Positions 1-12,411 of a stretch of DNA of 12,411 nt are shown one piece after another. The first letter of the stretch is position 1. Each line of letters begins with the position of its first letter. The notes beneath the pieces were generated by a model that was not told the DNA's origin, did not search any database, and was given only the letters and a program-made list of their open reading frames with translations. A program made the position numbers and the translations under genes. Source of the DNA: Candidatus Poribacteria bacterium (GTDB lineage Bacteria; Poribacteria; WGA-4E; GCA-2687025); contig CAXXJD010000001.1 of assembly GCA_963665845.2 (NCBI GenBank), forward strand, positions 1 to 12,411, written 5' to 3'.

Positions 1-787
1 GCGCGGTTCTGGGGTCCGTTCACGCCGATGAAAACCGCGCTGGTGTGCGCCGCGGCGGCTCTGGCAGCGATCCCTGGCTCCGCCGCCTCGGCGCGCTTGA
101 CGATTCTTCAGCTGGAGGGCGATTTTTTTTGCGGAGGCAAAACGGGCGTCATGGCGGACGCTCAAAGCGGTACTGGCGCCGCTCGCCGTCTTGACGCTCC
201 TACCGGCGGCGCTTTCTTGGACTGGCGTATCTCGGCGGGGCGCTCGGCAAACTTCTCGGCAACTGGTGGACGGGGCTGGGAATGCTGACGCTCATACCGG
301 GGCTGCTGGTCGGATTGCTGCTGGTGTTTTCGCTGTTTCTATGGGCGGTCGGGCTGCTGCCTTCTGCCCGCCGTCGCCGGCGTCAGCGGCGACAGCGGCA
401 TCGAAACCTCCTACCAGCTGACATCGATGGCATGGTCGCAGGGATGGCGCGTTCTTTTTTATGAAGCTGCTGCGCTGCTCATGTCGGCGCTGTCGGCGTC
501 TCTCTTTGCGGGGGCGTCGTTGGCGGGGCTGTTTTTGTTGACGCAGGCTGCAGCGCTGGGCGGGATAGCGGAGGCGTCTGTTGCGTTGTTCGGCAGCTTT
601 TTCTCGTTGTCGGCTCCGCCGGCGCCGCTTGATGAATTGCCGCTTCAGATTGGGGTTTGGATCGGCGCGTCCGTGTTGATCTTGACCTTATGGGCGTCCG
701 TTTCGTATTTCTTTAGCGGCGTCTCGGTCGGCAACGCGATCATCTATATCGATTTAAGGCAACGAATTTGGGGAGACAACGTTTTAA
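1..787 (+). CDS. Hypothetical polytopic membrane protein, 5'-truncated, reconstructed across about 4 single-base frameshifts
   Basis: Hydrophobic segments continue through successive frames: ORF 28 ([14 protein letters not shown]), ORF 191 frame ([14 protein letters not shown]), ORF 282 ([23 protein letters not shown]), ORF 427 ([22 protein letters not shown]...IYIDLRQR). One more +1 shift reaches tandem stops TAA TGA at 785-790. The end point is inferred. Confidence 0.6.
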
Positions 788-831
788 TGAAAGACGGCAG
801 GAACGGGGAGGCGAAAGGCGGGGGTAGAGCC

Positions 832-3360
832 ATGTTAAGCTACGTATTAGAAAAAATCGTCGGGTCAAAAAACGACCGCGACCTGAAAAAACTGCGCCAT
901 GTTGTGGAGCGGGTGAACGCGCTGGAGCCGTCAGTGAAAAACCTGACAGACGAACAGCTGTCGGCGAAGACGGCAGAATTTCGGGAACGGCTCTCCAACG
1001 GCGAAACGACCGACGATCTGTTGCCGGAGGCGTTCGCTGTGGTGCGCGAAACGGCATGGCGGCAGATTGGCGAGCGTCCGTATGACGTTCAGATTCTCGG
1101 CGCAGTTGTTCTTCATCAAGGGCGCATCGCCGAAATGCGGACGGGGGAGGGCAAGACGCTCACCTCCACGATGCCTGTTTATCTGAACGCGCTGACCGGG
1201 CGCGGCGTCCATGTCGTGACGGTGAACGAGTTTCTGGCGCAGAGAGACGCCGACTGGATGGGGCAGATCTACAAGGCGCTCGGCATGACGGTCGGCATCA
1301 CCCTAGAGGGGCGCCCCCGAAGTGTTAAAAAAGCGGCGTACGAGTGCGACATCACCTACGGCACCAATTCGGAGTTCGGGTTCGATTATCTGCGCGACCA
1401 CAGCAGCGCCCGCTCTATCGAAGAGAAGACGCAGCGGGAACTGCATTACTCCATTGTGGACGAGGTGGACAGCATCTTGATTGACGAGGCGCGGACGCCG
1501 CATATCATCTCGGAGCGCCGGAAGGAGAAAAGCGGAATATCCGCGCATCGCGCGCGTCGTCTCCCGTTTGAAAAAAGAGAAGCATTTTGAGATCGATGAA
1601 AAACGCTCCAAGCGCGGCTCCGCCTCCTTGACCGACGACGGCATCGACCTGCTTGAAAACGCTTTCTCTTTAAAAAACCTGTACGACCCTGAAAATATCG
1701 ACCTGCTGCATCACATCATGCAGTCGGTGAACGCGCATTATCTGTACCAAAACGATGTGGATTATGTGGTGACCGACGGGCGGGTCGTCATCGTGGACGA
1801 GTTCACGGGGCGCATGCAGCCGGAGCGCCGATTCAGCGACGGGCTGCATCAGGCGATTGAGGCGAAAGAAAAGGTGCGCATCGTTGAGGAGAGCCAGACG
1901 GTGGCGCGCATCACCTTTCAAAACTATTTCCGCATGTACGAAAAGCTGTCTGGGATGACAGGTACCGCGGCGACCGAAGCGAGCGAGTTTCACCAAATCT
2001 ACGGCTTGGATGTGGTCGTCGTGCCGACCAACATGCCGATGATCCGGGACGACCGCGACGACCTGGTCTTCCGCAACCATCGAGGCAAGGTACAAGCGGT
2101 CATCAACGACATAGCGGAGAATTTCAACGCGGGCCGCCCTGTTCTGGTCGGCACCATCTCCATTGAAGCGTCGGTTGAATTCAGCCGCGAGCTGACAAAG
2201 CGCGGCATCGCCCACCGCGTCCTGAACGCGAAGGAGCATACGAAGGAGGGCGAAATCATCGCCCATGCCGGGCAAAAACATGCGGTCACCATCGCGACGA
2301 ACATGGCGGGCCGCGGGGTGGACATCAAACTGGCGGACGGCGTCCTCGAACTGGGCGGGCTGTATGTGATCGGAACCGAACGGCATGACTCGCGGCGCAT
2401 CGACAACCAGCTGCGCGGGCGTTCTGGGCGTCAAAGGCGACCCCGGCGCCTCCCGTTTCTACCTGTCGCTTGAAAGACGACCTGATGCGCAAGTTCGGCT
2501 CCGACCGCATGGCGGGGATGATGGACAAGTTCCGCATCGAAGAGGATGTCCCGATGGAGCATAAGTGGTTCTCCAAGTCGATACAGAAGGCGCAGGAGCG
2601 GGTTGAACAGAACCATTTTGAGGCGCGCAAACAGATCCTCAAATACGACAATGTTTTGAGCCAGCAGCGCGATATGGTGTACGATCTGCGCGACCGCGCC
2701 ATCGAACAGGAAAGCCTGCGCGAAGACATGGCTTCAGATGGTGGAGGATGCGCTCACCGCCAAGATGGACGAAACGCTGCCCGAAGACGACCAGCTGGAG
2801 TGGGACGCCGAGGCGCTGCGGACATGGATGGAGCGGCAGTGCGGCGTGGAGCCTCCGCCGGCGCATCTCATCAACCGAGAGACGCCGCGCGATGAGATTT
2901 CAAGAGACGCTGCTTCAGATTTTCCAGAAGCGGTATGAGGAGCGGGAGCGGGAGCTGGGCGAGGAGGTCATGCGCGAGATCGAGCGTCTCATCCTGCTGG
3001 ATCGGATCGATTACCACTGGATGTCGCATCTTCACAACATCGATTACATTCAGGAGGGGATCGGGTTTAGAGGTTACGCCGGACGCGATCCGCTCATTGA
3101 GTTTCAGAACGAGGGCTTTGCGCTTTTTTCAAAACATGTTGACGCGCATTTACGAGGACGCCGCGCAGTATGTGTACCGCGTTCAGCTTCAGACGGCGCC
3201 GCAGCAGCCCGCGCCAACAGCCAACGGGAAGAGCAACGGAGCGGCGCCGCCGCAGAGACGCGCCCCCCGCAGCTCAACCGGCAAAAAAGTGGGGCGGAAC
3301 GCTCCCTGTCCATGCGGCAGCGGCAAGAAATTCAAACTGTGCTGCGGGCGGAACGCTTAG
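832..3360 (+). CDS. secA: Preprotein translocase ATPase SecA (about 840 aa after correcting about 6 +1 frameshifts)
   Basis: ATG 832 [16 protein letters not shown]. Motifs: Walker [71 protein letters not shown] (restored), C-terminal [25 protein letters not shown] ends at 3360. Shifts near 1530, 2433, 2474, 2730, 2899 and 3127. Confidence 0.97.
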
Positions 3361-3361
3361 C

Positions 3362-4551
3362 TTGAAAAATCTTCTGTTCCTCAGTTTGCGATTGCCGTAT
3401 CCGCCTCATCGGGGCGGACCGAATCCGCGCGTTTCATTTCATACGCGGACTGCAGGAAAAGTATCGAATCGCGCTGGCGGCGTTTTTTGAAAAGCGAAGC
3501 GAACTGGACAATCTCGGACCGCTGCGCGAGATGTGCGCCGAGATATACGCCGCGCCGCATTCCGCATGGAAAGGCGCGGGCGCGCGCCGCCGCGAGCCTG
3601 TTCGGAAACGAGCCGCTTCAAGAACGCCATGTGGAGATCGACGCAAATGGCGGACGCGGTGCGGGAAGCCATCGACGAAAGCGCGCCGGACGCCGTCCAT
3701 GCCTCGCTTTTTCGCATGGGGCGGTATGTGGCGGAGGAGCCGCTGCCGAAGCTGTTAGACCTGTGCGATTCGATGGCGATGAACCTGCGCCGGCGAATGG
3801 AGCGCGAACGCAACCCGCTCAACCGACCGCTCCTGAGGATCGAAGAGAAACGGGCGCGGCGGTATGAAGCGGAGATTATTCAGGCGTTCGACCGTACCGT
3901 CGTCATCGCCGCGGACGACCGAGACGCGATCCATGAGACGGCGCCGGACGCGCGGCTTGACATCGTCTCGCAGGGAGTCGACTTAGACTACTTCTCCCCC
4001 TCCCGTCCAGAGCGAAAAGGTCCGCCGACGATTCTTTTCACCGGGACGATGAACTACTTTCCCAACACGGACGCGGCGATGTTTCTTGCGCATGACACGC
4101 TGCCGAAGGTGCGGGAGGCGTTTCCGGACGCGCGGCTTATCTTGGCGGGGTACCAGCCCGCCGCGGCCGCTGCGCCGATTGAACGGACGGAACGGCGTTG
4201 TTGTTACAGGCGCGGCGCCCGATCTGCGCCCTTATTTTGAGGAGGCGGACATCTTCGCCGCGCCGATGTTCTGCGGCTCCGGCGTTCAAACCAAAAATCT
4301 GGAAGCGATGGCGATGAAGCTGCCGGTTGTAACCACGCCGCTCGGAAGGCAGGGCTGCGGCGCCCGAAACGGACATGAGCTGCTGGAAGCAAATGATCAA
4401 GACAAATTCGCCCAAGAGGTTATATCGTTATTAAAGGACAGGGATCGGCAGCGCGCCTTAGCCGACGCCGGGCGCCGATATGTGGAGCGGGAACATGGAT
4501 GGGGCGTCATCACCGAAAAAGCTTTGCCGACTATACGATGAGATACTTTAA
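3362..4551 (+). CDS. GT4-family (GT-B fold) glycosyltransferase, resembling TIGR03087-type sugar transferases; about 5 +1 frameshifts
   Basis: TTG at 3362 gives a restored N-terminus MKNLLFLSLRLPYPPHRGDRIRAFHFIRGL. Later motifs: DLCDSMA, QGVDLDYF, ILFTGTMNYFPNTDA, APMFCGSGVQTKNLEAMAMKLPVVTT, GRRYVEREHGW. Restored end EKLCRLYDEIL, TAA 4549-4551. Confidence 0.88.
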
Positions 4552-4554
4552 AAA

Positions 4555-6354
4555 ATGAAACGAACGCGCAATTTTTGCATCATCGCCCATATTGATCATG
4601 GCAAGTCGACGCTCGCCGACCGCCTGCTTGAAACGACCGGCGCTCTGGACGAACGGGAGATGCGCGATCAGGCTCTCGATACGATGGACCTTGAACGGGA
4701 ACGCGGAATCACGATCAAGGCGGCGGTCGCCCGCTTGTCCTACGCCGCAAAAGACGGCAGCGAATATGAGGCTGAACCTGATCGACACGCCGGGGCATGT
4801 GGACTTCACCTATGAGGTTTCAAGGAGGCCTCGCCGCCTGCGAAGGCGCCTTGCTGCTGGTGGACGCCGCGCAAGGAATACAGGCGCAGACCGTCTCCAA
4901 CGCCACCTTGGCGCTGGAGCAGGGGCTGGAGATTGTCCCTGTGCTGAATAAGATTGATCTGCCCTCCGCTCAAATCGATCTCGTTTCTGAAGAGATTGAA
5001 GACCTGTTGGGAACGCCCGCTGAAGAGATACTGCAAATCAGCGCCAAAAACGGCGTCGGAGTAGAAGACGCGCTGGAGGCGGTCGTTCAGCGGATTCCTC
5101 CCCCGTCCGGCGATCTGAACGCCCCCTTAAAAGCGCTCGTCATCGACTCGCATTACGACACGTACCGCGGCGTCGTCATGTGCGTCCGCGTGATGGACGG
5201 ATCGCTGCGCAGCAAGATGCCGATACGTTTGATGGCGGCGGGCGACGAACGCGAGTCGGCGGAGGTGGGCGTCTTCGCGCCGCGCATGACGCCGGTCAAG
5301 GAACTGAGAGCAGGCTCGGTCGGGTATATCACCGCGAACATCAAGGACATCCGCCAAACGCGCATCGGCGACACGATCACCGACCGCGGAAACTCCGACG
5401 GCGCAGCCATGCCCAGGCTACCGCGACATGCAGCCGTTCGTTTTCTGCGGTCTCTACCCGGCGGACAGCTCCGACTTTTCGGCGCTGCGGGAGGCGCTGG
5501 ACAAGCTGCGCCTGAACGAAAGCTCCTTCACCTATGAGGCGGAAACCTCGGACGCTCTCGGCTTCGGTTTTCGGTGCGGTTTTCTCGGTCCGTTACATAT
5601 GGACATTGTGCGGGAGCGGCTTGAACGGGAGTATGATCTAACGCTCATCACGACGGCTCCGAATGTCCGGTATCAGGTTTTGACGAACGGCGGCGATGTG
5701 TTGGAGATCGAGAATCCGTCCGATATGCCGGGGCTGGGCGAGTTGGCGTCCATCGAAGAGCCGCGCGCGTCGGTTCAGTTGAGCGTCCCCGCCGAATATA
5801 TCGGCGCGGCAATGGAGCTGTGCGAAAGCCGCCGCGGGGACCTACCAATCGCTGGAGTATCTCACGCCGACGCGCGCGGCGATCCATTACGAGCTGCCGT
5901 TGAGCGAAATGGTCGTCAACTTTTTTGACAAGTTTAAAATCGTCCACGCGCGGCTACGGCTCCATGAGCTACGAGCTGATTGGTTACCGCGAGTCGGATC
6001 TGGTGAAGCTGGACATTCTCCTAAACGGAAAGCCTCTCGATGCGCTGTCGCTCATCATTCACAAAGAGAAGGCGGGCGAGCGGGGGCGCGCGCTGGCTGA
6101 AAAGCTGCAGGCGGTCATTCCGCGCCAGTTTTTCGATTGTGGCGATACAAGCCGCCATCGGACGGCGGGTCGTCGCGCGCAAGACGGTCAAAGCGATCCG
6201 AAAGAATGTCACCGCGAAATGTTACGGCGGGGACATCACCCGTAAACGAAAGCTGCTGGAACGGCAGAAAGAGGGGCGCAAACGCATGAAAGCGGTCGGC
6301 AGCGTCGAAGTGCCGCAGGAGGCGTTCACCGCCGCGCTCTCGATGGACGAATGA
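4555..6354 (+). CDS. lepA: Translation elongation factor 4 (LepA GTPase); 6 +1 frameshifts
   Basis: [103 protein letters not shown] ends at 6354. Confidence 0.97.
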
Positions 6355-6388
6355 AAACCGCAAAACGCATCAACTGATCATAAGGCCG

Positions 6389-7449
6389 GTGGAAAGAGAT
6401 GTCGCAAAAAAACGTACAGACAATGAATCGCCTGCTGAAAAAAAGATAGACGTGCGCAACCTCGGTCATCATGGACTGGGCGCAGATACTCATGATGGCG
6501 TTTATCGTCGTCTTTGGTTTCATTCGCCCGTTTATCGCCGAGCCGTATAAGATACCCTCAGGGTCTATGGAAAATACGTTGTTCGCCGGCGACCGGGTGT
6601 TGGTGCTGAAATTCAGCTACGGCGCCAAATTGCCGGCGACCTCCACACGCCTGTTCGACTTCCGCGGACCGCAGGCGGGCGATGTGTTTGTCTTTAGCCC
6701 TAAACACAGCCCGCTAGAGCATTTTATCAAGCGTGTCCGTTGCGAAGCCGGGCGATACGATCGCCGTCGGCGGCAACTCGCTGCTCATCAACAGCAAGCG
6801 GCTTTTGAACGAAGAATACGCGAAGCCGCTTCCGTATGCGAACGATGAGCCGTTTCAACATAAAAATGCAGCCTCCCATTTTCCGCCGTTTAGATCCCAT
6901 TGGTCGCTTGCGCCGTACTATTTGGAGCATCCCGGCGCCTGGGAATCGGTTCAAGAGTACATCGAACGGGAACAGGTTGAAACGGAGCTGTTCGACGAAG
7001 AGCCGATCGCCATGGCAACGGAGGACGGAACCCATTATCGGCTGCGCATCGCAGGGAAGGGCAGGGAGTACGACCGCCGACTCCCTGTCAAAGAGTACTA
7101 TATTGTCGAGGCGGACAACCGGGAGGGGAGAATCATGCGCGGCGTCCTGTACCAAAACACGGAGACGCTGCAGTGGACATTTACGCGCAGCCGTTCCTAC
7201 CGCAGGCATACGGGAAGACGCCGTTTTCAAGGTCCCGGACCGCCATTACTTTGCGGTCGGCGACAATCGGCTCAACCTCGCAGGACAGCCGCGCTTGGGG
7301 GTCCGGTTCCGTACGATGTTGTCAAGGGCAAGGCGGTCTGGATCTACTGGTCAAACGATCCGGACGCCCCCCGCAACACGCTTCGGCGCTGGATACGCTT
7401 TGACCATATCAAACCGATCATGAACAGGTATGGAACCCTTGAACCCTGA
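6389..7449 (+). CDS. lepB: Signal peptidase I; start uncertain (GTG 6389, ATG 6399 or ATG 6471); 4-5 +1 frameshifts
   Basis: TM anchor WAQILMMAFIVVFGFIRPF, catalytic Ser box IPSGSMENTLFAGDRVLVLK, catalytic Lys box FIKRV, restored box E [35 protein letters not shown]. Lies directly downstream of lepA. Confidence 0.92.
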
Positions 7450-8594
7450 CATCAGCCTCTATGTCCATATCCCGTTCTGTTTGCGCAAATGCCGCTACTG
7501 CGACTTTGCCACCTACCCGATGCGCCCCGAACTGACAGCGCCGTTTCTGTCGGCGCTGGAGACGGAAGCGGAGCGGGTCGGGTCGGCGGTTCTAGGAGCC
7601 GTCAAGACCGTTTTCTTCGGAGGAGGAACGCCCTCTCTGTTTGAACGGCGGGCAGATGAACAGGCTCATGGAGGCGCTGCGCCGCTCCTTCAACATGGAA
7701 CCGCAGGCGGAGATCACCCTTGAAGCGAACCCAGAGACGTCGGACGAACCGCGCCTGCGCGCCTATCGAAACGCGGGCGTCAACCGCCTCTCCATCGGCG
7801 CGCAAACCTTCGATGACGCGGCGCTGAAACAGCTGGACAGGACGCATTCTTCAGAGCAGATCGAGACGGCTTACCGGAACGCGCGAAACGCCGGCTTTGA
7901 AAACATCAACCTCGACATGATATTCGCCCTCCCTGGTCAGACGATGCGTAAATGGCGGGAGGATGCGCGGCGCGCCCGCTCTCTTGACCCTGAACATCTG
8001 TCCATTTACAACCTGACGATTGAGCCAAAAACCGTGTTTCATTACTGGAACCGCCAAGGCCGCCTCTCCCTTCCCGACGAGGACCTTCAAGCCGAAATGT
8101 ATGAGTGGACGCTGGATGCGATGGAGCGGGCGGGGTATCCGTATTACGAGCTGTCCAATTTTGCCAGGCTCGGCAGCGAATGCGAGCATAATCTGCGTTA
8201 CTGGCGCAACGAACCGCACGCGGGAATCGGTCCGGGGGCATGCAGTTATTTGAACGGCGAGCGGACAGCCAACACGCGCGGGACAAAGTCGTATATCAAG
8301 CGGATAGAGGAGGGGCGCGACCCGATCGTTGAACGGGAGCGGCTTGACGGGAAGGCGGCGCGCGCTGAAACGGTTCGGCAGGGGCTGCGAATGCGCGGCG
8401 GAGTTACTCTAACCGAATACGCCCGACGATACGGAATGTGCCTGCTGGACGACTTCCAAACGGAGATTGAGCAAATCACCCGCCTCGGCTTGACGACGCT
8501 GGCGGACGGAGCCTTGCGCTTGACGCGGCGCGGCGTTCTGCTCGCAAATGAAGCGTTTTTGCGACTGCTGCCCGAATCGGCGCTATCATATTAA
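7430..8594 (+). CDS. hemW: Radical SAM heme chaperone HemW (HemN-like); one +1 frameshift near 7640
   Basis: SLYVHIPFCLRKCRYCDF (CxxxCxxC), FFGGGTPS, EITLEANP, NRLSIGAQTF, DMIFALPGQT, YELSNFAR and the HemW-type HNLRYW motif. Overlaps the lepB end by 20 nt. Confidence 0.9.
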
Positions 8595-8628
8595 CAGCGG
8601 AAAAACGAAGGAGAAACGCGACGCCCGC

Positions 8629-9725
8629 ATGAACGCCACAACCGCCCTCGTCGGCATGAGCATAGAAGAGATGGAGCGATGGGCTGAAGAGAACGGTCAG
8701 CCCGCATACCGCGGCCGGCAGCTGTACCAATGGATCTACCGGCGCGGCGCCGCCGCTTTTTCCGAAATGACCAATTTGCCGAAAGCATGGCGGTCGGAGC
8801 TGGAGAAGTCCGCCTCGCTGACCGCGTTGAAGGTTGCCGCGGAGCGGGTCTCGTCCGACGGAACGACGAAATACCTGATGGAGCTGCAGGACGGGGAACA
8901 GGTCGAGTCGGTTCTGATACCGGACGGCTCCCGCCTGACGCTGTGCGTTTTCAAGTCCAGGTCGGGTGCGGTCAAAAATGTTCGTTCTGCGCGACCGCTC
9001 TTTTGGGGCTGCGGCGCAATATGACAGCGGGGGAGATCTTGGGTCAGGCGCTGGAGGCGTCCCGCCGCGTCGGTCGGGACTCGTTGACAAACATGGTGTT
9101 CATGGGCATGGGGGAGCCTCTGGCGAATTACAAGAATTTGATGACGGCGCTGCGCGTTCTATCGCATCCGGAAGGGTTTGCGCTTGGAGCGCGCAAGATC
9201 ACCGTGTCGACCTCCGGTTTAGCGCCGGCGATTCGCCGTTTTGCGCGCGAGAAGTTGAAGACGGGTCTGGCGCTGTCTCTCAACGCGACGACCGACGAGA
9301 CGCGCAACGATTTGATTCCGTCCAATCGACGTTATACTATTGCAAATGTGTTGGCGGCGTGCCTGGAATGGATCGAAGCTTCGAAACGGCGTTTGACGAT
9401 AGAATATGCGATGATACGCGATGTGAACGATACGGCTGAAGACGCTTACCGTCTGCGCCGTCTGCTGCGGGATGTTCCGTCTAAAGTGAATCTGATACCG
9501 TTCAATCCGATACCTGGGAGTTCCTATGTCCGACCGCGCGCCTCGTCCGTGTTGAAGTTCCAGCGGATTATGCTGGACGGCGGCATCGGAGCGACCGTCC
9601 GCAAAACCAAGGGACAAGATATAGAGGCGGCATGCGGACAGCTGCGCGCCTCCACCGAAGGTTCCACACCGAAGCGCGCCCGCTCGCGCATGGAAGAGAA
9701 AGGAAATGCAAGTGCAGGTAGGTAA
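8629..9725 (+). CDS. rlmN: Dual-specificity 23S rRNA/tRNA C2-adenosine methyltransferase RlmN (radical SAM); two +1 shifts at about 8947-8957
   Basis: YRGRQLYQWIY, SSDGTTKYL, restored LCVSSQVGCGQKCSFCAT, VFMGMGEPL, ITVSTSG, VNLIPFNP, GQDIEAACGQL. AAGGAG at 8608-8613 lies upstream, with a long spacing to the start. Confidence 0.95.
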
Positions 9726-10937
9726 ATTGCCCGGCTCCGGAGCTTTCCGCTGGTCGGGTCGAATCGCGGCTGTTGCGGCGCTTTTGACGGCGCTGGTCGG
9801 CTGCGAAATCAAGGAAACCGATTTTACATATTATGAGGTTGGTAAACAGCAGCTGATCAACGACAGCTCGTCGCAGGCCGCGAAAGATTTTCAGAAATCG
9901 ATCGACAAAGAGCCGAAAACAAGGTCCATCGCGCGCGCGTATCTAGCGGTGGCGTACGACCGCGCGGCAAAGAAGATGCGAAACATCCCCTCGGAAGCGC
10001 AAAGATACATCGAAATGCGGGACAAATCCATCGGCGAGGTGCGCCAAGACCCATCGGCAATACTGGGCATGGTCCAAATTCTGAAACGTCAAGATTTTCT
10101 TTCCGAATCGGCTGAAGACGCGCTCGTCGTTTTGGGCGAAGACTGCGTCCCGGACCTGATCCACTCCTACCATAAGCCGCTGGTGCGGCGAAAGGTGCAG
10201 CGCGTCCTGGCGCGCATCGGTCCCAAAGCGGCTGCAGGACTCAAAGAAGCGATACTGTCCGATTCGTACAACGCGCAAGAGAAAACGGAACTGCTGCGCG
10301 TTCTGGGGCATGTGACCGACGCCCAGTCGATTCCGTTTTTGAAAACGCTGCAAGAGGATGAAACCGCCCCGGCGGGGCTGCGTACGGAAGCGTCCGCCGC
10401 GCTGTACAAGCTCGGCGAAAAGGGCGAGCGCGGCTTTATTCTCAGCAGTCTCGACTCCAATGATCTGCTGGCGCGGCGCGCCGCGGCGTATGCGCTGCAA
10501 TTCTTGGACAGGAAAACCCCCCGCGTCGACGATCATTGAGCGGCTGTCCGATGAGGATGAAATCGTGCGGATGAGCATCGTCCAAGCGATCCAAAAACAC
10601 GGCAACGGGCGCTCAACCATCAACGCCCTTGTGGACGCTTTACAGAAGGAAAAGAACAACGCCGTTGTTGACAAGATGGTGGAGACGATCGCCAGTTTTG
10701 AAGCGTCCGCCATCGAACCGACCCTAAAGGCGCTCATGAAAAAAACAGGAGAACGACCACTGGAGGCGCCGGCAGCGGCTCTCGCGCATCATCGGCGATG
10801 AACAGGTGATATGGAAGTTGTCGGAAAACCAGCTCTACGACCTGGATGAGTTCTACCGCAAAGAGCAGGCGCCGCAGGTTCAGAACATCCTAGGGGACAT
10901 TCTCACCAAGATTGCCGAAAAGGAGGCAGGCGGCTGA
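9706..10937 (+). CDS. Putative lipoprotein with a TPR-like helical segment followed by HEAT repeats; 2 +1 frameshifts
   Basis: Signal RIAAVAALLTALVG-C (lipobox, Cys codon 9802). TPR-like YYEVGKQQL...AAKDFQKSIDKEP...ARAYLAVAY. HEAT-like units AEDALVVLG, LRVLGHVTDAQSIPFL, RTEASAALYKLG, LSDEDEIVRMSIVQAI. Restored tail ...ILTKIAEKEAGG, TGA 10935-10937. AAGGA at 9700-9704 suggests GTG 9712 may be the true start. Confidence 0.75.
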
Positions 10938-10938
10938 T

Positions 10939-10964
10939 CAACGCCGCCAGTGGGAAAGGCGTTG
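10939..10964 (+). terminator. Hairpin just after the lipoprotein stop; possible terminator or 3' stabiliser
   Basis: CAACGCC (10939-10945) pairs with GGCGTTG (10958-10964) around a 12-nt loop. There is no U-tract, so terminator function is doubtful. Confidence 0.3.
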
Positions 10965-10979
10965 TCAACCAGTTCGTTC

Positions 10980-11147
10980 CTGACCTCACGCCTAAAGTTG
11001 GGACATTCGAACCGACGATCGCTTTATTCATGGGAAAAAGGCGCCGCTAACCAAGCCGTCCTTCCCGCGTAAGCGGGAATCTAGAGGCGTCGCAGAAGAC
11101 GTCTGCGTTCGTCCGCCGGCATGTCCCAACTAAAGACGTAAGGTCAG
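10980..11147. mobile_element. MITE-like element 1 (168 bp, non-autonomous)
   Basis: Left end CTGACCTCACGCCTAAAGTTGGGACAT (10980-11006) matches the reverse complement of the right end, CTGACCTTACGTCTTTAGTTGGGACAT (11121-11147), at 23/27. Perfect 8-bp flanking direct repeat GTTCGTTC at 10972-10979 and 11148-11155. No transposase. Confidence 0.85.
11058..11111 (+). repeat. dRS3/REP-like palindrome copy 1 plus second hairpin (inside MITE 1)
   Basis: GTC-CTTCCC-GCGTAAGC-GGGAAT-CTAGAG, followed by the hairpin CGCAGA-agacg-TCTGCG. 11062-11111 matches 11343-11392 at 47/50. Confidence 0.85.
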
Positions 11148-11153
11148 GTTCGT

Positions 11154-11171
11154 TCCCCGCTTCCGCGGGGA
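11154..11171. repeat. GC-rich palindrome at the junction of the two MITEs (REP-like, reverse orientation)
   Basis: TCCCCGC-ttcc-GCGGGGA forms a perfect 7-bp stem. It overlaps the right direct repeat of MITE 1 and the left direct repeat and terminus of MITE 2. Confidence 0.7.
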
Positions 11172-11324
11172 GTACGCTCATGCGATGAACTTCATGATTG
11201 ACTTAAAACGTCGGAGCCGCCTGACGTCATTCCCGCGCAAACGGGAATCCAGAGTTTTCCCAGAGAGCCTTCGCATTCCAAAACGGCGCTCTAAAAATCA
11301 AAATCATCGCTTGTAAGTACTGCC
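11168..11324. mobile_element. MITE-like element 2 (157 bp, non-autonomous)
   Basis: Left end GGGAGTACGCTCATGCGATGA (11168-11188) matches the reverse complement of the right end, GGCAGTACTTACAAGCGATGA (11304-11324), at 16/21. Perfect 8-bp flanking direct repeat CTTCCGCG at 11160-11167 and 11325-11332. Confidence 0.72.
11226..11254 (+). repeat. dRS3/REP-like palindrome copy 2 (inside MITE 2)
   Basis: GTC-ATTCCC-GCGCAAAC-GGGAAT-CCAGAG, with an exact ATTCCC-N8-GGGAAT core at 11229-11248. Confidence 0.85.
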
Positions 11325-11341
11325 CTTCCGCGAGGACATGC

Positions 11342-11392
11342 ATTCCCGCGTAAGCGGGAATCTAGAGGCGGCGCAGACGACGTCCGCGTTCG
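11342..11392 (+). repeat. dRS3/REP-like palindrome copy 3 plus second hairpin (outside the MITEs, next to the clpX stop)
   Basis: ATTCCC-GCGTAAGC-GGGAAT core at 11342-11361, then CTAGAGGCGGCGCAGACGACGTCCGCGTTCG. Near-identical to copy 1. Confidence 0.85.
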
Positions 11393-11400
11393 CCAAGCGG

Positions 11401-12411
11401 TTAGGCTGACAACGCTTCCTCGTCTTTATAGATGAGCGACGGCTCCTCGTTTCCGCTCACGACTCCCGGTCCGATGACGCACTCCTGAACGCCGGGAAAG
11501 CGACGGCAGGCGGTACATCACATTCAGCATCGCTTTCTCCATGACGGAGCGAAGCCCGCGGGCGCCTGTTTCGCGCAGTATCGCCTGTCGGGCAATTTCG
11601 CGCAGCGCGGCTTCGGGTATCGTCAGCTTCACATTCTCGTATTCAAAGAACTTCTGATACTGCTTTACAAGGGCGTTTTTCGGCTCGGTGAGTATCCGAA
11701 CAAGCGCGTCTTCATCCAGCTCATACAGGTTTGCCACCACCGGCAGCCGCCCAATCAGCTCCGGTATGAAGCCGAACCGCACAAGGTCTCTCGGCTCCAC
11801 CTGCGCCAGCGAGGCGCCGACGCTGTCATGGGCGCGGTCGCGCAGCTCGGCGCCAAAACCGAGCGACTTCCGACCAAGCCGCTGCTCAACAATCTTTTCT
11901 AAACCGGTGAAGGTTCCGCCCGCGATAAACAGTATGCGCGAGGTGTCGACCTGGATAAACTCCTGATGCGGATGCTTGCGCCCGCCCTGCGGCGGCACAT
12001 TGGCGACGGAGCCTTCCAGAATTTTCAACAGCGCCTGCTGGACGCCTTCGCCGGAGACGTCGCGGGTGATGGAGGGGTTTTCCGACTTGCTCGCGATCTT
12101 GTCGACTTCGTCCAGATAAACGATGCCGGTTTCGGCGCGGTCAACGTCAAAATCGGAGGCTTGCAGCAGTTTGAGTATGATGTTTTCAACATCCTCGCCG
12201 ACATAGCCCGCCTCGGTCAGAGAGGTGGCGTCGGCGATGGTGAACGGCACATTCAACGCGCGCGCCAGCGTCTGCGCCAAGAGCGTCTTGCCGACGCCGG
12301 TCGGTCCAATCAGCAGTATATTGCTTTTCTCCAGCTCAACGTCGGAGCCGTCGTCGCCGGTCTGTATGCGCTTGTAATGGTTGTAGACGGCGACGGCAAG
12401 CGCGATTTTAG
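11401..12411 (-). CDS. clpX: ATP-dependent Clp protease ATP-binding subunit ClpX, 5'-truncated; one +1 frameshift near 11498
   Basis: [32 protein letters not shown] (Walker A), GYVGEDVE pore loop, YLDEVDK (Walker B), [24 protein letters not shown] loop, TGARGLRS. Restored end [32 protein letters not shown], stop at 11403-11401. Confidence 0.97.

Follow-up and report, generated by a model that had tools for sequence, protein, structure and literature searches.

Two miniature elements in one repeat unit

Between two convergent genes in a 12,411-nucleotide stretch of Candidatus Poribacteria DNA (the window, to which unprefixed positions refer), two short elements with unrelated termini lie only 4 bp apart, and each carries a palindrome like the one beside the insertion site, which raises the question of what directed both to the same spot. 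The initial annotation proposed that such MITEs insert at REP/dRS3-like palindromes and carry new copies which seed further targets, in a self-reinforcing loop. The window is a redundant copy (97.4% identical) of C1:1159054-1171431, C1 being a contig of genome G000 (3.98 Mb, ~60% G+C), which is ~90% complete; the counts of element ends and REPs given below are those of C1.

The intergenic region (10939..11401) runs from the stop codon of a HEAT-repeat gene on the forward strand (10936-10938) to the likely TAA stop codon of clpX on the reverse strand (11402-11404), and is 463 bp long provided that clpX is read to this TAA across an apparent assembly frameshift, whereas the mechanically called ORF ends at 11426. 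Its order is GTTCGTTC - 168-bp E1 - GTTCGTTC - CCCG - CTTCCGCG - 157-bp E2 - CTTCCGCG. E1 (10980..11147) has CTGA ends of the IS4/Tn5 type, with inverted repeats (10980-11006 and 11121-11147) matching at 23/27 bases, and lies between two forward-strand copies of its 8-bp target-site duplication GTTCGTTC (10972..10979 and 11148..11155). E2 (11168..11324) has GG ends of the IS1 type, with inverted repeats (11168-11188 and 11304-11324) matching at 16/21 bases, and its right duplication, CTTCCGCG, is at 11325..11332 on the forward strand, while the left copy (11160-11167) forms, with the 4-bp spacer CCCG, a REP-variant hairpin of the host repeat unit (11156..11167, forward strand). Removing both elements and one duplication each leaves a computed empty site of 122 bp; the arrangement and both lengths agree with the initial annotation. 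The E1-spacer-E2 junction is crossed without mismatch by short-read contigs from runs X1 and X5 (two studies, although X1 may be the source sample), and the join is therefore not an assembly artefact. Elsewhere in the window (427-10938) many housekeeping-like ORFs, which we take to be secA-, lepA-, signal peptidase-, hemN- and rlmN-like, are broken by frameshifts, and at least some of these splits are assembly errors, as short-read contigs differ from the window by single-base indels at 10739 and 11494.

The site entered by both elements is a genuine repeat, a REP-family unit, as had been suspected: a 26-nt core of the empty site spanning both junctions occurs exactly 59 times in C1, 75 of 885 BLAST hits cover both junctions, and comparison of repeat units in C1 matches it to the interior of a 189-bp E1 subfamily. 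The left part of this host unit (10951..10979, forward strand) is homologous to that interior but has no E1 termini of its own, and a dRS3-type palindrome (11342..11361, forward strand) belongs to the same unit. In the sister species G008 (same genus) the orthologous site does not hold the 122-bp empty allele expected from the initial annotation, as the genes are 62 bp apart there and separated by an unrelated 62-bp hairpin. The joints listed for runs X1, X3, X5 and X6 (24 further joints are unlisted) include no empty or single-insertion one; one X5 contig joins both genes over a short interval resembling that of G008.

The REP palindrome and its distribution

Each element contains one palindrome of the ATTCCC-N8-GGGAAT type on the forward strand, at 11057..11085 in E1 (a CGTC-tagged REP of dRS3/NTS type, with C for the first A of the palindrome) and at 11225..11253 in E2 (likewise CGTC-tagged), making that at 11342..11361 the third in the region. 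C1 contains 884 such REP sites, with an N8 loop in 873 and a CGTCA tag in 618; 866 sites match ATTCCC-N8-GGGAAT exactly, and the NTS consensus is matched exactly at 174 and with one mismatch at 384. With its CGTC tag, ATTCCC-N8-GGGAAT stem-loop and short 3' tail, the repeat is, judged by sequence, a CGTC-tagged REP, equal to Neisseria dRS3 and close to NTS, in keeping with the dRS3 likeness first proposed; the available text of two studies equates CGTC-tagged REPs with Neisseria dRS3 (PMC3733652) and describes cleavage of the NTS repeat by Ssn GIY-YIG nucleases (PMC11893778).

That the REP travels as internal cargo proved general, as it is present in 119/130 short E1 elements and 35/39 short E2-type elements, while all six transposase-bearing copies (one IS4-like, five IS1) lack it. 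Paired MITEs hold 154 of the 884 REPs and at most 395 lie near an element end; many of the remainder form tandem arrays. A 102-aa GIY-YIG (PF01541) gene at L011:1492-1800 (G000:C1 ~2298870-2299180) is flanked by inverted REP arrays, with three direct units on its upstream side and three inverted units on its downstream side, and may represent an ssnA-like locus with REPtron-style layout, a type known to accompany CGTC REPs; no specific NCBIfam model matched it. No RAYT/IS200-type Y1 transposase was found in the genome, using a control which matched in 6/14 genomes. Two other repeats were noted in C1, a second abundant palindromic family with TTGAAA that takes E1 insertions 3 bp from the hexamer (for example at G000:C1 582382, 1601645 and 2505944), and a third frequent repeat of CTGAACTAGGATT-type.

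The genome-wide distribution contradicts REP targeting as a general rule. Among copies with an exact duplication, this overlaps a REP hairpin in 1/53 E1 and 1/21 E2 elements, both being the window's own, and a REP outside the element lies within 30 bp of only 4/493 E1 ends and 2/268 E2 ends, against a random intergenic expectation of ~30 and ~16 respectively, a null that is inflated by REP arrays. Of the proposed MITE-REP loop, the transport of REPs as cargo therefore stands, but insertion at REPs does not.

E1 and E2 share their ends with IS4-like and IS1 elements

A search of C1 identified 493 E1-type ends, pairing into 130 short elements (53 with exact duplication, 77/130 without), and 268 E2-type ends, pairing into 39 short elements (21 with exact duplication, 18/39 without), in varied flanks; with such numbers of ends, the structure in the window exceeds a chance likeness. 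Both families are true multi-copy MITEs, being short, non-coding and numerous, with terminal inverted repeats and target duplications. E1 duplications range from 5 to 9 bp (mode 6-7), while 20 E2-type copies have a duplication of 8 bp and a single copy has one of 9 bp. Copies of the E1 interior without any E1 end within 90 bp are 15 of 146. The E2 of the window consists of halves of two different subfamilies meeting at the REP, and 8/39 short E2-type elements are mixed-ended when typed by a rough rule.

Both families have an autonomous insertion sequence with the same ends in the genome. The sole autonomous E1-ended element, C1:561322-562588 (1267 bp), encodes a DDE transposase and matches the left end of the window E1 at 23/25 bases; from these shared ends, E1 is probably mobilised by a transposase of this type. 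The protein has the DDE triad and a complete YREK motif (D87, D168, Y260-R263-E267-K274 in alignment A1), with a second spacer of 98 residues, just below the 100-150 given for the IS4 family in the available text of PMC2266710. In its predicted model (pLDDT 82) the top five Foldseek matches are all Tn5 transposase (best E 1e-11), while the IS4 profile found no match by sequence among solved structures. None of the NCBIfam IS4 models scores it above its curated cut-off (NF033591 comes nearest, at 77.7 vs 152 bits), and we filed this partner as IS4/Tn5-like, without placing it in a defined subgroup. Against the IS4 yardstick of about one helical turn (7-13 bp), the duplications of E1-type elements and IS4 relatives are 5-9 bp, mode 6-7, in this genome and in Chloroflexota, and 9-12 bp in a sister clade.

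Four other long E1-ended intervals were inspected as possible autonomous elements and rejected, since they contain ordinary genes or an IS110 element between separate MITE ends; at L002:867-2003 (G000:C1 ~3073755-3074891), two E1-type ends enclose the gene of an IS110-family transposase. At L004:488-640, in the C-terminal part of the IS4-like transposase, the ORF departs from the alignment of its homologues after about residue 322, at an adenine run, and the conserved C-terminal block is also absent from 9/29 aligned homologues; the departure may reflect a programmed frameshift or else an error in this assembly.

E2-type ends bound three full IS1 elements of 822-825 bp (C1:3507598-3508422, 2900231-2901052 and 1868311-1869132) and two deleted ones, and the left end of the window E2 matches the element at C1:3507598 at 19/21 bases. 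Members of the IS1 family have 8-9-bp duplications, GG ends and a length of ~0.8 kb, values into which the E2 partner fits with its 8-bp duplication, GG ends and 822-825 bp. Its transposase, with an N-terminal zinc finger, HTH and DDE, scores above the cut-offs of the IS1 models (NF033558, 127.5 vs 100 bits; NF050000, 37.7 vs 28), and the shared ends and model scores together assign the partner, at the level of prediction, to the IS1 family.

Insertions keep a fixed distance to promoter motifs

Flank positions were counted outward from each element end, and the gap was defined as the number of bp from the duplication to the -35 TTG; gap counts were restricted to copies with exact duplication, leaving out 77/130 E1 and 18/39 E2-type short elements. 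When all ends are pooled, E1 flanks show a TTGAC peak at positions 10-11 (27 and 37 of 493) with TAnnnT at 33-35, and E2 flanks show one at position 16 (34/268) with TAnnnT at 39 (74 ends). The TTG peaks (10-12 for E1, 16 for E2) are thus followed by a TAnnnT peak 23 bases beyond, while the opposite-strand GTCAA control is flat. The E1 TTG position equals the duplication length plus 4 for each of the lengths 5, 6, 7, 8 and 9, which means that the -35-proximal cut is constant and the distal one shifts. The gap is 3 in 36/53 duplication-bearing E1 copies and 7 in 17/22 E2-type copies (21 MITEs and one full IS1), all other gaps being represented by 0-3 copies each in either family, with a chance rate for TTG at a given gap of 0.033 per copy. 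TTG combined with a -10 box was found in 19 E1 and 11 E2-type copies at the rule gap, and in none at every other gap.

The transposase-bearing copies show the same spacing, with TTG at position 16 on one end in 5/5 IS1 copies and at positions 10 and 12 for the IS4-like copy. Either end of E1 can face the promoter (23 vs 14), and the -35 hexamers next to the insertions vary as much as those of natural promoters do. Promoter-positive ends face a gene in the sense orientation in 115/121 cases for E1 and 74/75 for E2, at median distances of 84 and 92 bp (by a crude gene caller). Copies lacking TTG at the rule gap (17/53 E1, 5/22 E2-type) often retain TA at the -10 position, in 5/5 for E2, at the same offset as TAGAGG in the window, and in 7/17 at offset 23 for E1, with another 5 at offset 22, which points to a whole promoter rather than one word. 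On these counts, the copies follow the spacing of predicted sigma70 promoters (here meaning sequence motifs) rather than REPs.

Most ends lie outside predicted coding sequence (472/493 for E1, 246/268 for E2). Tail-to-head MITE neighbours within 30 bp of each other were found in 29 cases, as would be expected if the families compete for one narrow zone. A promoter-spaced TTG on both sides was found in 11/77 E1 elements without duplication versus 1/53 with duplication, which suggests that the former include MITE-mediated deletions or rearrangements between promoter-adjacent ends.

The window itself is an atypical example of the rule, as each of its copies matches by half. A consensus TTGACA (10963..10968, reverse strand) lies 3 bp from the E1 duplication and faces away from E1, into the end of the convergent gene, with no -10 box in register; for E2, which is among the five TTG-negative copies, a weak -10-like TAGAGG (11363..11368, forward strand) is exactly where the IS1 rule predicts, but 11340-11345, where the -35 would fall, lacks TTG. 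The site may therefore be read as an old repeat unit entered by each family under its own ruler, tentatively so for E2.

The spacing follows the transposase clade

Related elements were sought in other genomes, where single-protein scans found nothing and alignment-based scans succeeded; none of the related loci was found in viral contigs. Genomes of close kin are not independent samples. In G008 (64 fetched loci) TTG is present at positions 10-12 in 24/45 E1 flanks and at position 16 in 17/39 E2 flanks. Among the best 80 of 175 loci, mainly from Chloroflexota with one Acetothermia record, IS4-like relatives of 42-51% identity have gap 3 in 26/27 duplication-bearing copies, 22 of these with a -10 box; element boundaries in this set were defined by termini and duplications, independently of promoters. 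An IS4 sister clade of ~25% identity with 9-12-bp duplications has gap 3 in 29/37 copies from five genomes of the same class; in G034, which brings the same-class genomes to six, all eight copies counted obey the rule, four further copies without duplication being left uncounted. The exception is an IS4-like element in G016 (L436-L443), with gap 3 in only 1/7 copies and 9-bp duplications in six of the seven. It is nested on a long branch within the promoter-spaced clade and its termini are near-identical to those of the homing G137 element (7/8), making this an apparent natural loss of targeting; alignment by eye with homing relatives showed no obvious insertion or deletion in its transposase.

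For IS1 the rule appears to hold in the sister species G008 and in related insertion sequences, but not in distant ones. Relatives with GGTA/GGTG ends have TTG at position 16 in 8/17 distinct ends, none with an intact duplication and some from related samples. Rule spacing was absent from distant GAGGG-ended IS1 copies with duplications (0/30 in five genomes, including 0/9 in G034) and from plasmid IS1 copies with duplications (0/6), and relatives with GGAATT/GGGATT ends have no TTG at position 16 (0/17 ends). Copies with uncallable ends were dropped (plasmid IS1 copies L458 and L462, G016 copy L442 and three GAGGG-type copies). The IS1 tree splits spaced from unspaced groups at low support (0.34-0.37), and close IS1 relatives were found in 0/401 and 2/301 sampled genomes of two other phyla and in 4/176 of the own phylum. 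Within the single genome G034, IS4 copies obey their rule (8/8) while GAGGG-ended IS1 copies do not (0/9): the spacing depends on the transposase clade, not on the host.

Proposed mechanism and alternative explanations

Our preferred explanation, to which we assign a probability of roughly 0.7, is that E1 and E2 are non-coding, REP-carrying miniatures of IS4/Tn5-like and IS1 insertion sequences, placed upstream of sigma70-type promoter motifs by transpososomes that hold on to RNA polymerase at the promoter. The fixed cut falls in the stretch of DNA touched by sigma region 4 and the alpha-CTD, from which we infer an anchor on the sigma70 holoenzyme near one of these two. For IS4, the fixed cut beside the -35 and the floating far cut (duplications of 5-12 bp) would fit one tethered side of a transposase dimer. 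Landing just upstream of the -35 box would leave the promoter intact, so that hundreds of copies could be tolerated and families could stack within a few bases. At this locus, E1 would have entered an old repeat unit with a REP, following its own rule beside TTGACA, and E2 would have entered in register with the weak -10-like motif of the opposite strand; the REP would be cargo and, here, coincidental host. In a separate observation on sigma factors, genes for proteins of 390-500 aa, in which a long C-terminal part follows an N-terminal ECF-like sigma domain as a fusion, were seen in clusters at G000:C1 1716339-1726037, 2454553-2456188, 2577964 and 3524075.

The main rival is that the transposases read promoter DNA directly, as a TTG motif or a bend at a fixed distance, without contacting RNA polymerase. 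The window E1, placed 3 bp from a TTGACA without -10 box, would be explained by this, as would the several E1 copies located 3 bp from TTGAAA within another repeat family and the presence of a TAnnnT box in only 19 of the 36 E1 copies with TTG, and both transposases have spare DNA-binding modules. Direct reading is nevertheless unlikely in our judgement, given that TTG-less copies retain TA exactly where a -10 box is due, 26-30 bp past the duplication (E2 5/5, E1 7/17), that natural promoters show just as much degeneracy in the -35 hexamer, and that transposases of two unrelated folds both behave in this way, each with a distance of its own. Purifying selection acts, as the scarcity of ends in predicted coding sequence indicates; random insertion with selection retaining only copies just upstream of promoters is nonetheless scarcely credible, since it cannot yield single-base registers which differ by family (3 vs 7 bp) and track duplication length, nor the obedience of IS4 but not of GAGGG-ended IS1 in G034.

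Two further explanations concern the elements themselves. Homing of MITEs on REP/dRS3 palindromes, with the cargo seeding new targets, has in its favour that the window site is a REP unit, that nearly all copies of both families carry the cargo and that REP-targeting insertion sequences exist (PMC1525189, available text), but it is very improbable as only the window's own copies overlap a REP hairpin, ends near an outside REP are fewer than expected, and the autonomous elements have no REP to carry. E2 might instead be moved by a transposase of the Mutator type (ISLre2/ISKra4), its ends resembling those of IS1 by coincidence; this reading could draw on the incompleteness of the genome (~90% complete) and on the 15 bp from E2 end to -35, a distance published for TnGBS/ISLre2 (PMC3942029, available text). 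We give this next to no weight, because IS1 transposase genes scoring above the NF033558 cut-off lie between the same ends with the same spacing in 5/5, and no PF00872 match was found in the genome (the control matched in 6/14 genomes); a PF06782 profile search of the genome was also without match, its control being likewise silent.

We lean, by a narrow preference, towards an IS1 clade and a broad IS4/Tn5-like clade having each independently evolved a sigma70 RNA polymerase tether (7 and 3 bp from the -35), convergent with Mutator-type elements, which would bring the habit to at least three unrelated DDE lineages. If true, promoter homing would be a convergent safe-harbour strategy with both new lineages active in one genome, and targeting guided by host factors a recurrent one among insertion sequences, reaching single-base precision in the textbook families IS1 and Tn5-like IS4. 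Promoter spacing would also explain why a genome of 4 Mb can bear several hundred MITE ends and why different elements come to be stacked. Each transposase is a small single protein of Tn5-like or IS1 fold, and relatives that home can be matched with relatives that do not, so that promoter-finding by the transposase is directly testable; the non-homing G016 member nested in the IS4 clade could reveal the determinant, and such transposases could serve promoter mapping or gene-sparing delivery.

Comparison with known systems

The REP at this locus belongs with the CGTC REP/dRS3/NTS repeats, with the addition that it is carried as cargo by two MITE families; the word 'MITE' does not occur in the main text of the Ssn paper (PMC11893778). 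Known REP-targeting insertion sequences are ISPsy8, ISPa11, ISPpu9/10 and ISRm22 (Tobes and Pareja 2006, PMC1525189, available text). The likeness to these is confined to this one site in a REP unit, as E1 and E2 differ from them in having neither a genome-wide REP preference nor a fixed point of insertion in the REP (1/53 and 1/21).

Within the IS4 family, the E1 partner resembles the IS10/IS50/ISPepr1 side (De Palmenaer et al. 2008, PMC2266710, available text) in its DDE and YREK motifs, 5'-CT ends, length of 1267 bp and Tn5-like fold, while differing in its scores below the NCBIfam cut-offs and its duplications of 5-9 bp; the word 'promoter' is absent from the main text of that survey. The E2 partner shares with the IS1 family (NF033558) the zinc-finger/HTH/DDE transposase, GG ends, 8-bp duplication and length of 822-825 bp, but it differs in its fixed promoter spacing, which is absent from the 30 GAGGG-ended copies of five genomes and from the six plasmid copies. 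The nearest named plasmid IS1 elements are ISSru2, ISSru3 and ISAcma4, at 28-36% identity.

The closest parallel is provided by the TnGBS ICEs, ISLre2 (p-MULT 3) and the ISKra4 group (p-MULT 4), whose insertions lie 15-17 bp upstream of -35 boxes in promoters used by the housekeeping sigma factor (Guerillot et al. 2014, PMC3942029); that study proposes the mechanism of promoter targeting by analogy only. Other work (PMC9208149 and bioRxiv 2025.07.22.666184) reports, in the text available, only a loose association of insertion sequences with promoter regions. In the literature searched, fixed-distance insertion upstream of promoters was found only for the Mutator-like ISLre2/TnGBS/ISKra4 elements and for no IS1 or IS4 element, an earlier mention being possible in most subscription journals, ISfinder pages and supplements, which lay outside the search. 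E1 and E2 likewise keep a constant spacing to the -35 motifs of housekeeping-sigma type downstream of them, the 15 bp of E2 falling within the published range, and E1 shares with elements having near-perfect inverted repeats the freedom of either end to face the promoter (PMC3942029, available text). The differences are that the transposases described here are IS4/Tn5-like and IS1 rather than Mutator-like, and that the IS4 ruler is distinct, the -35 lying 3 bp beyond duplications that vary in length. To a habit known from Mutator-like elements, promoter-targeted transposition by IS1-family and IS4/Tn5-like elements would thus be an addition.
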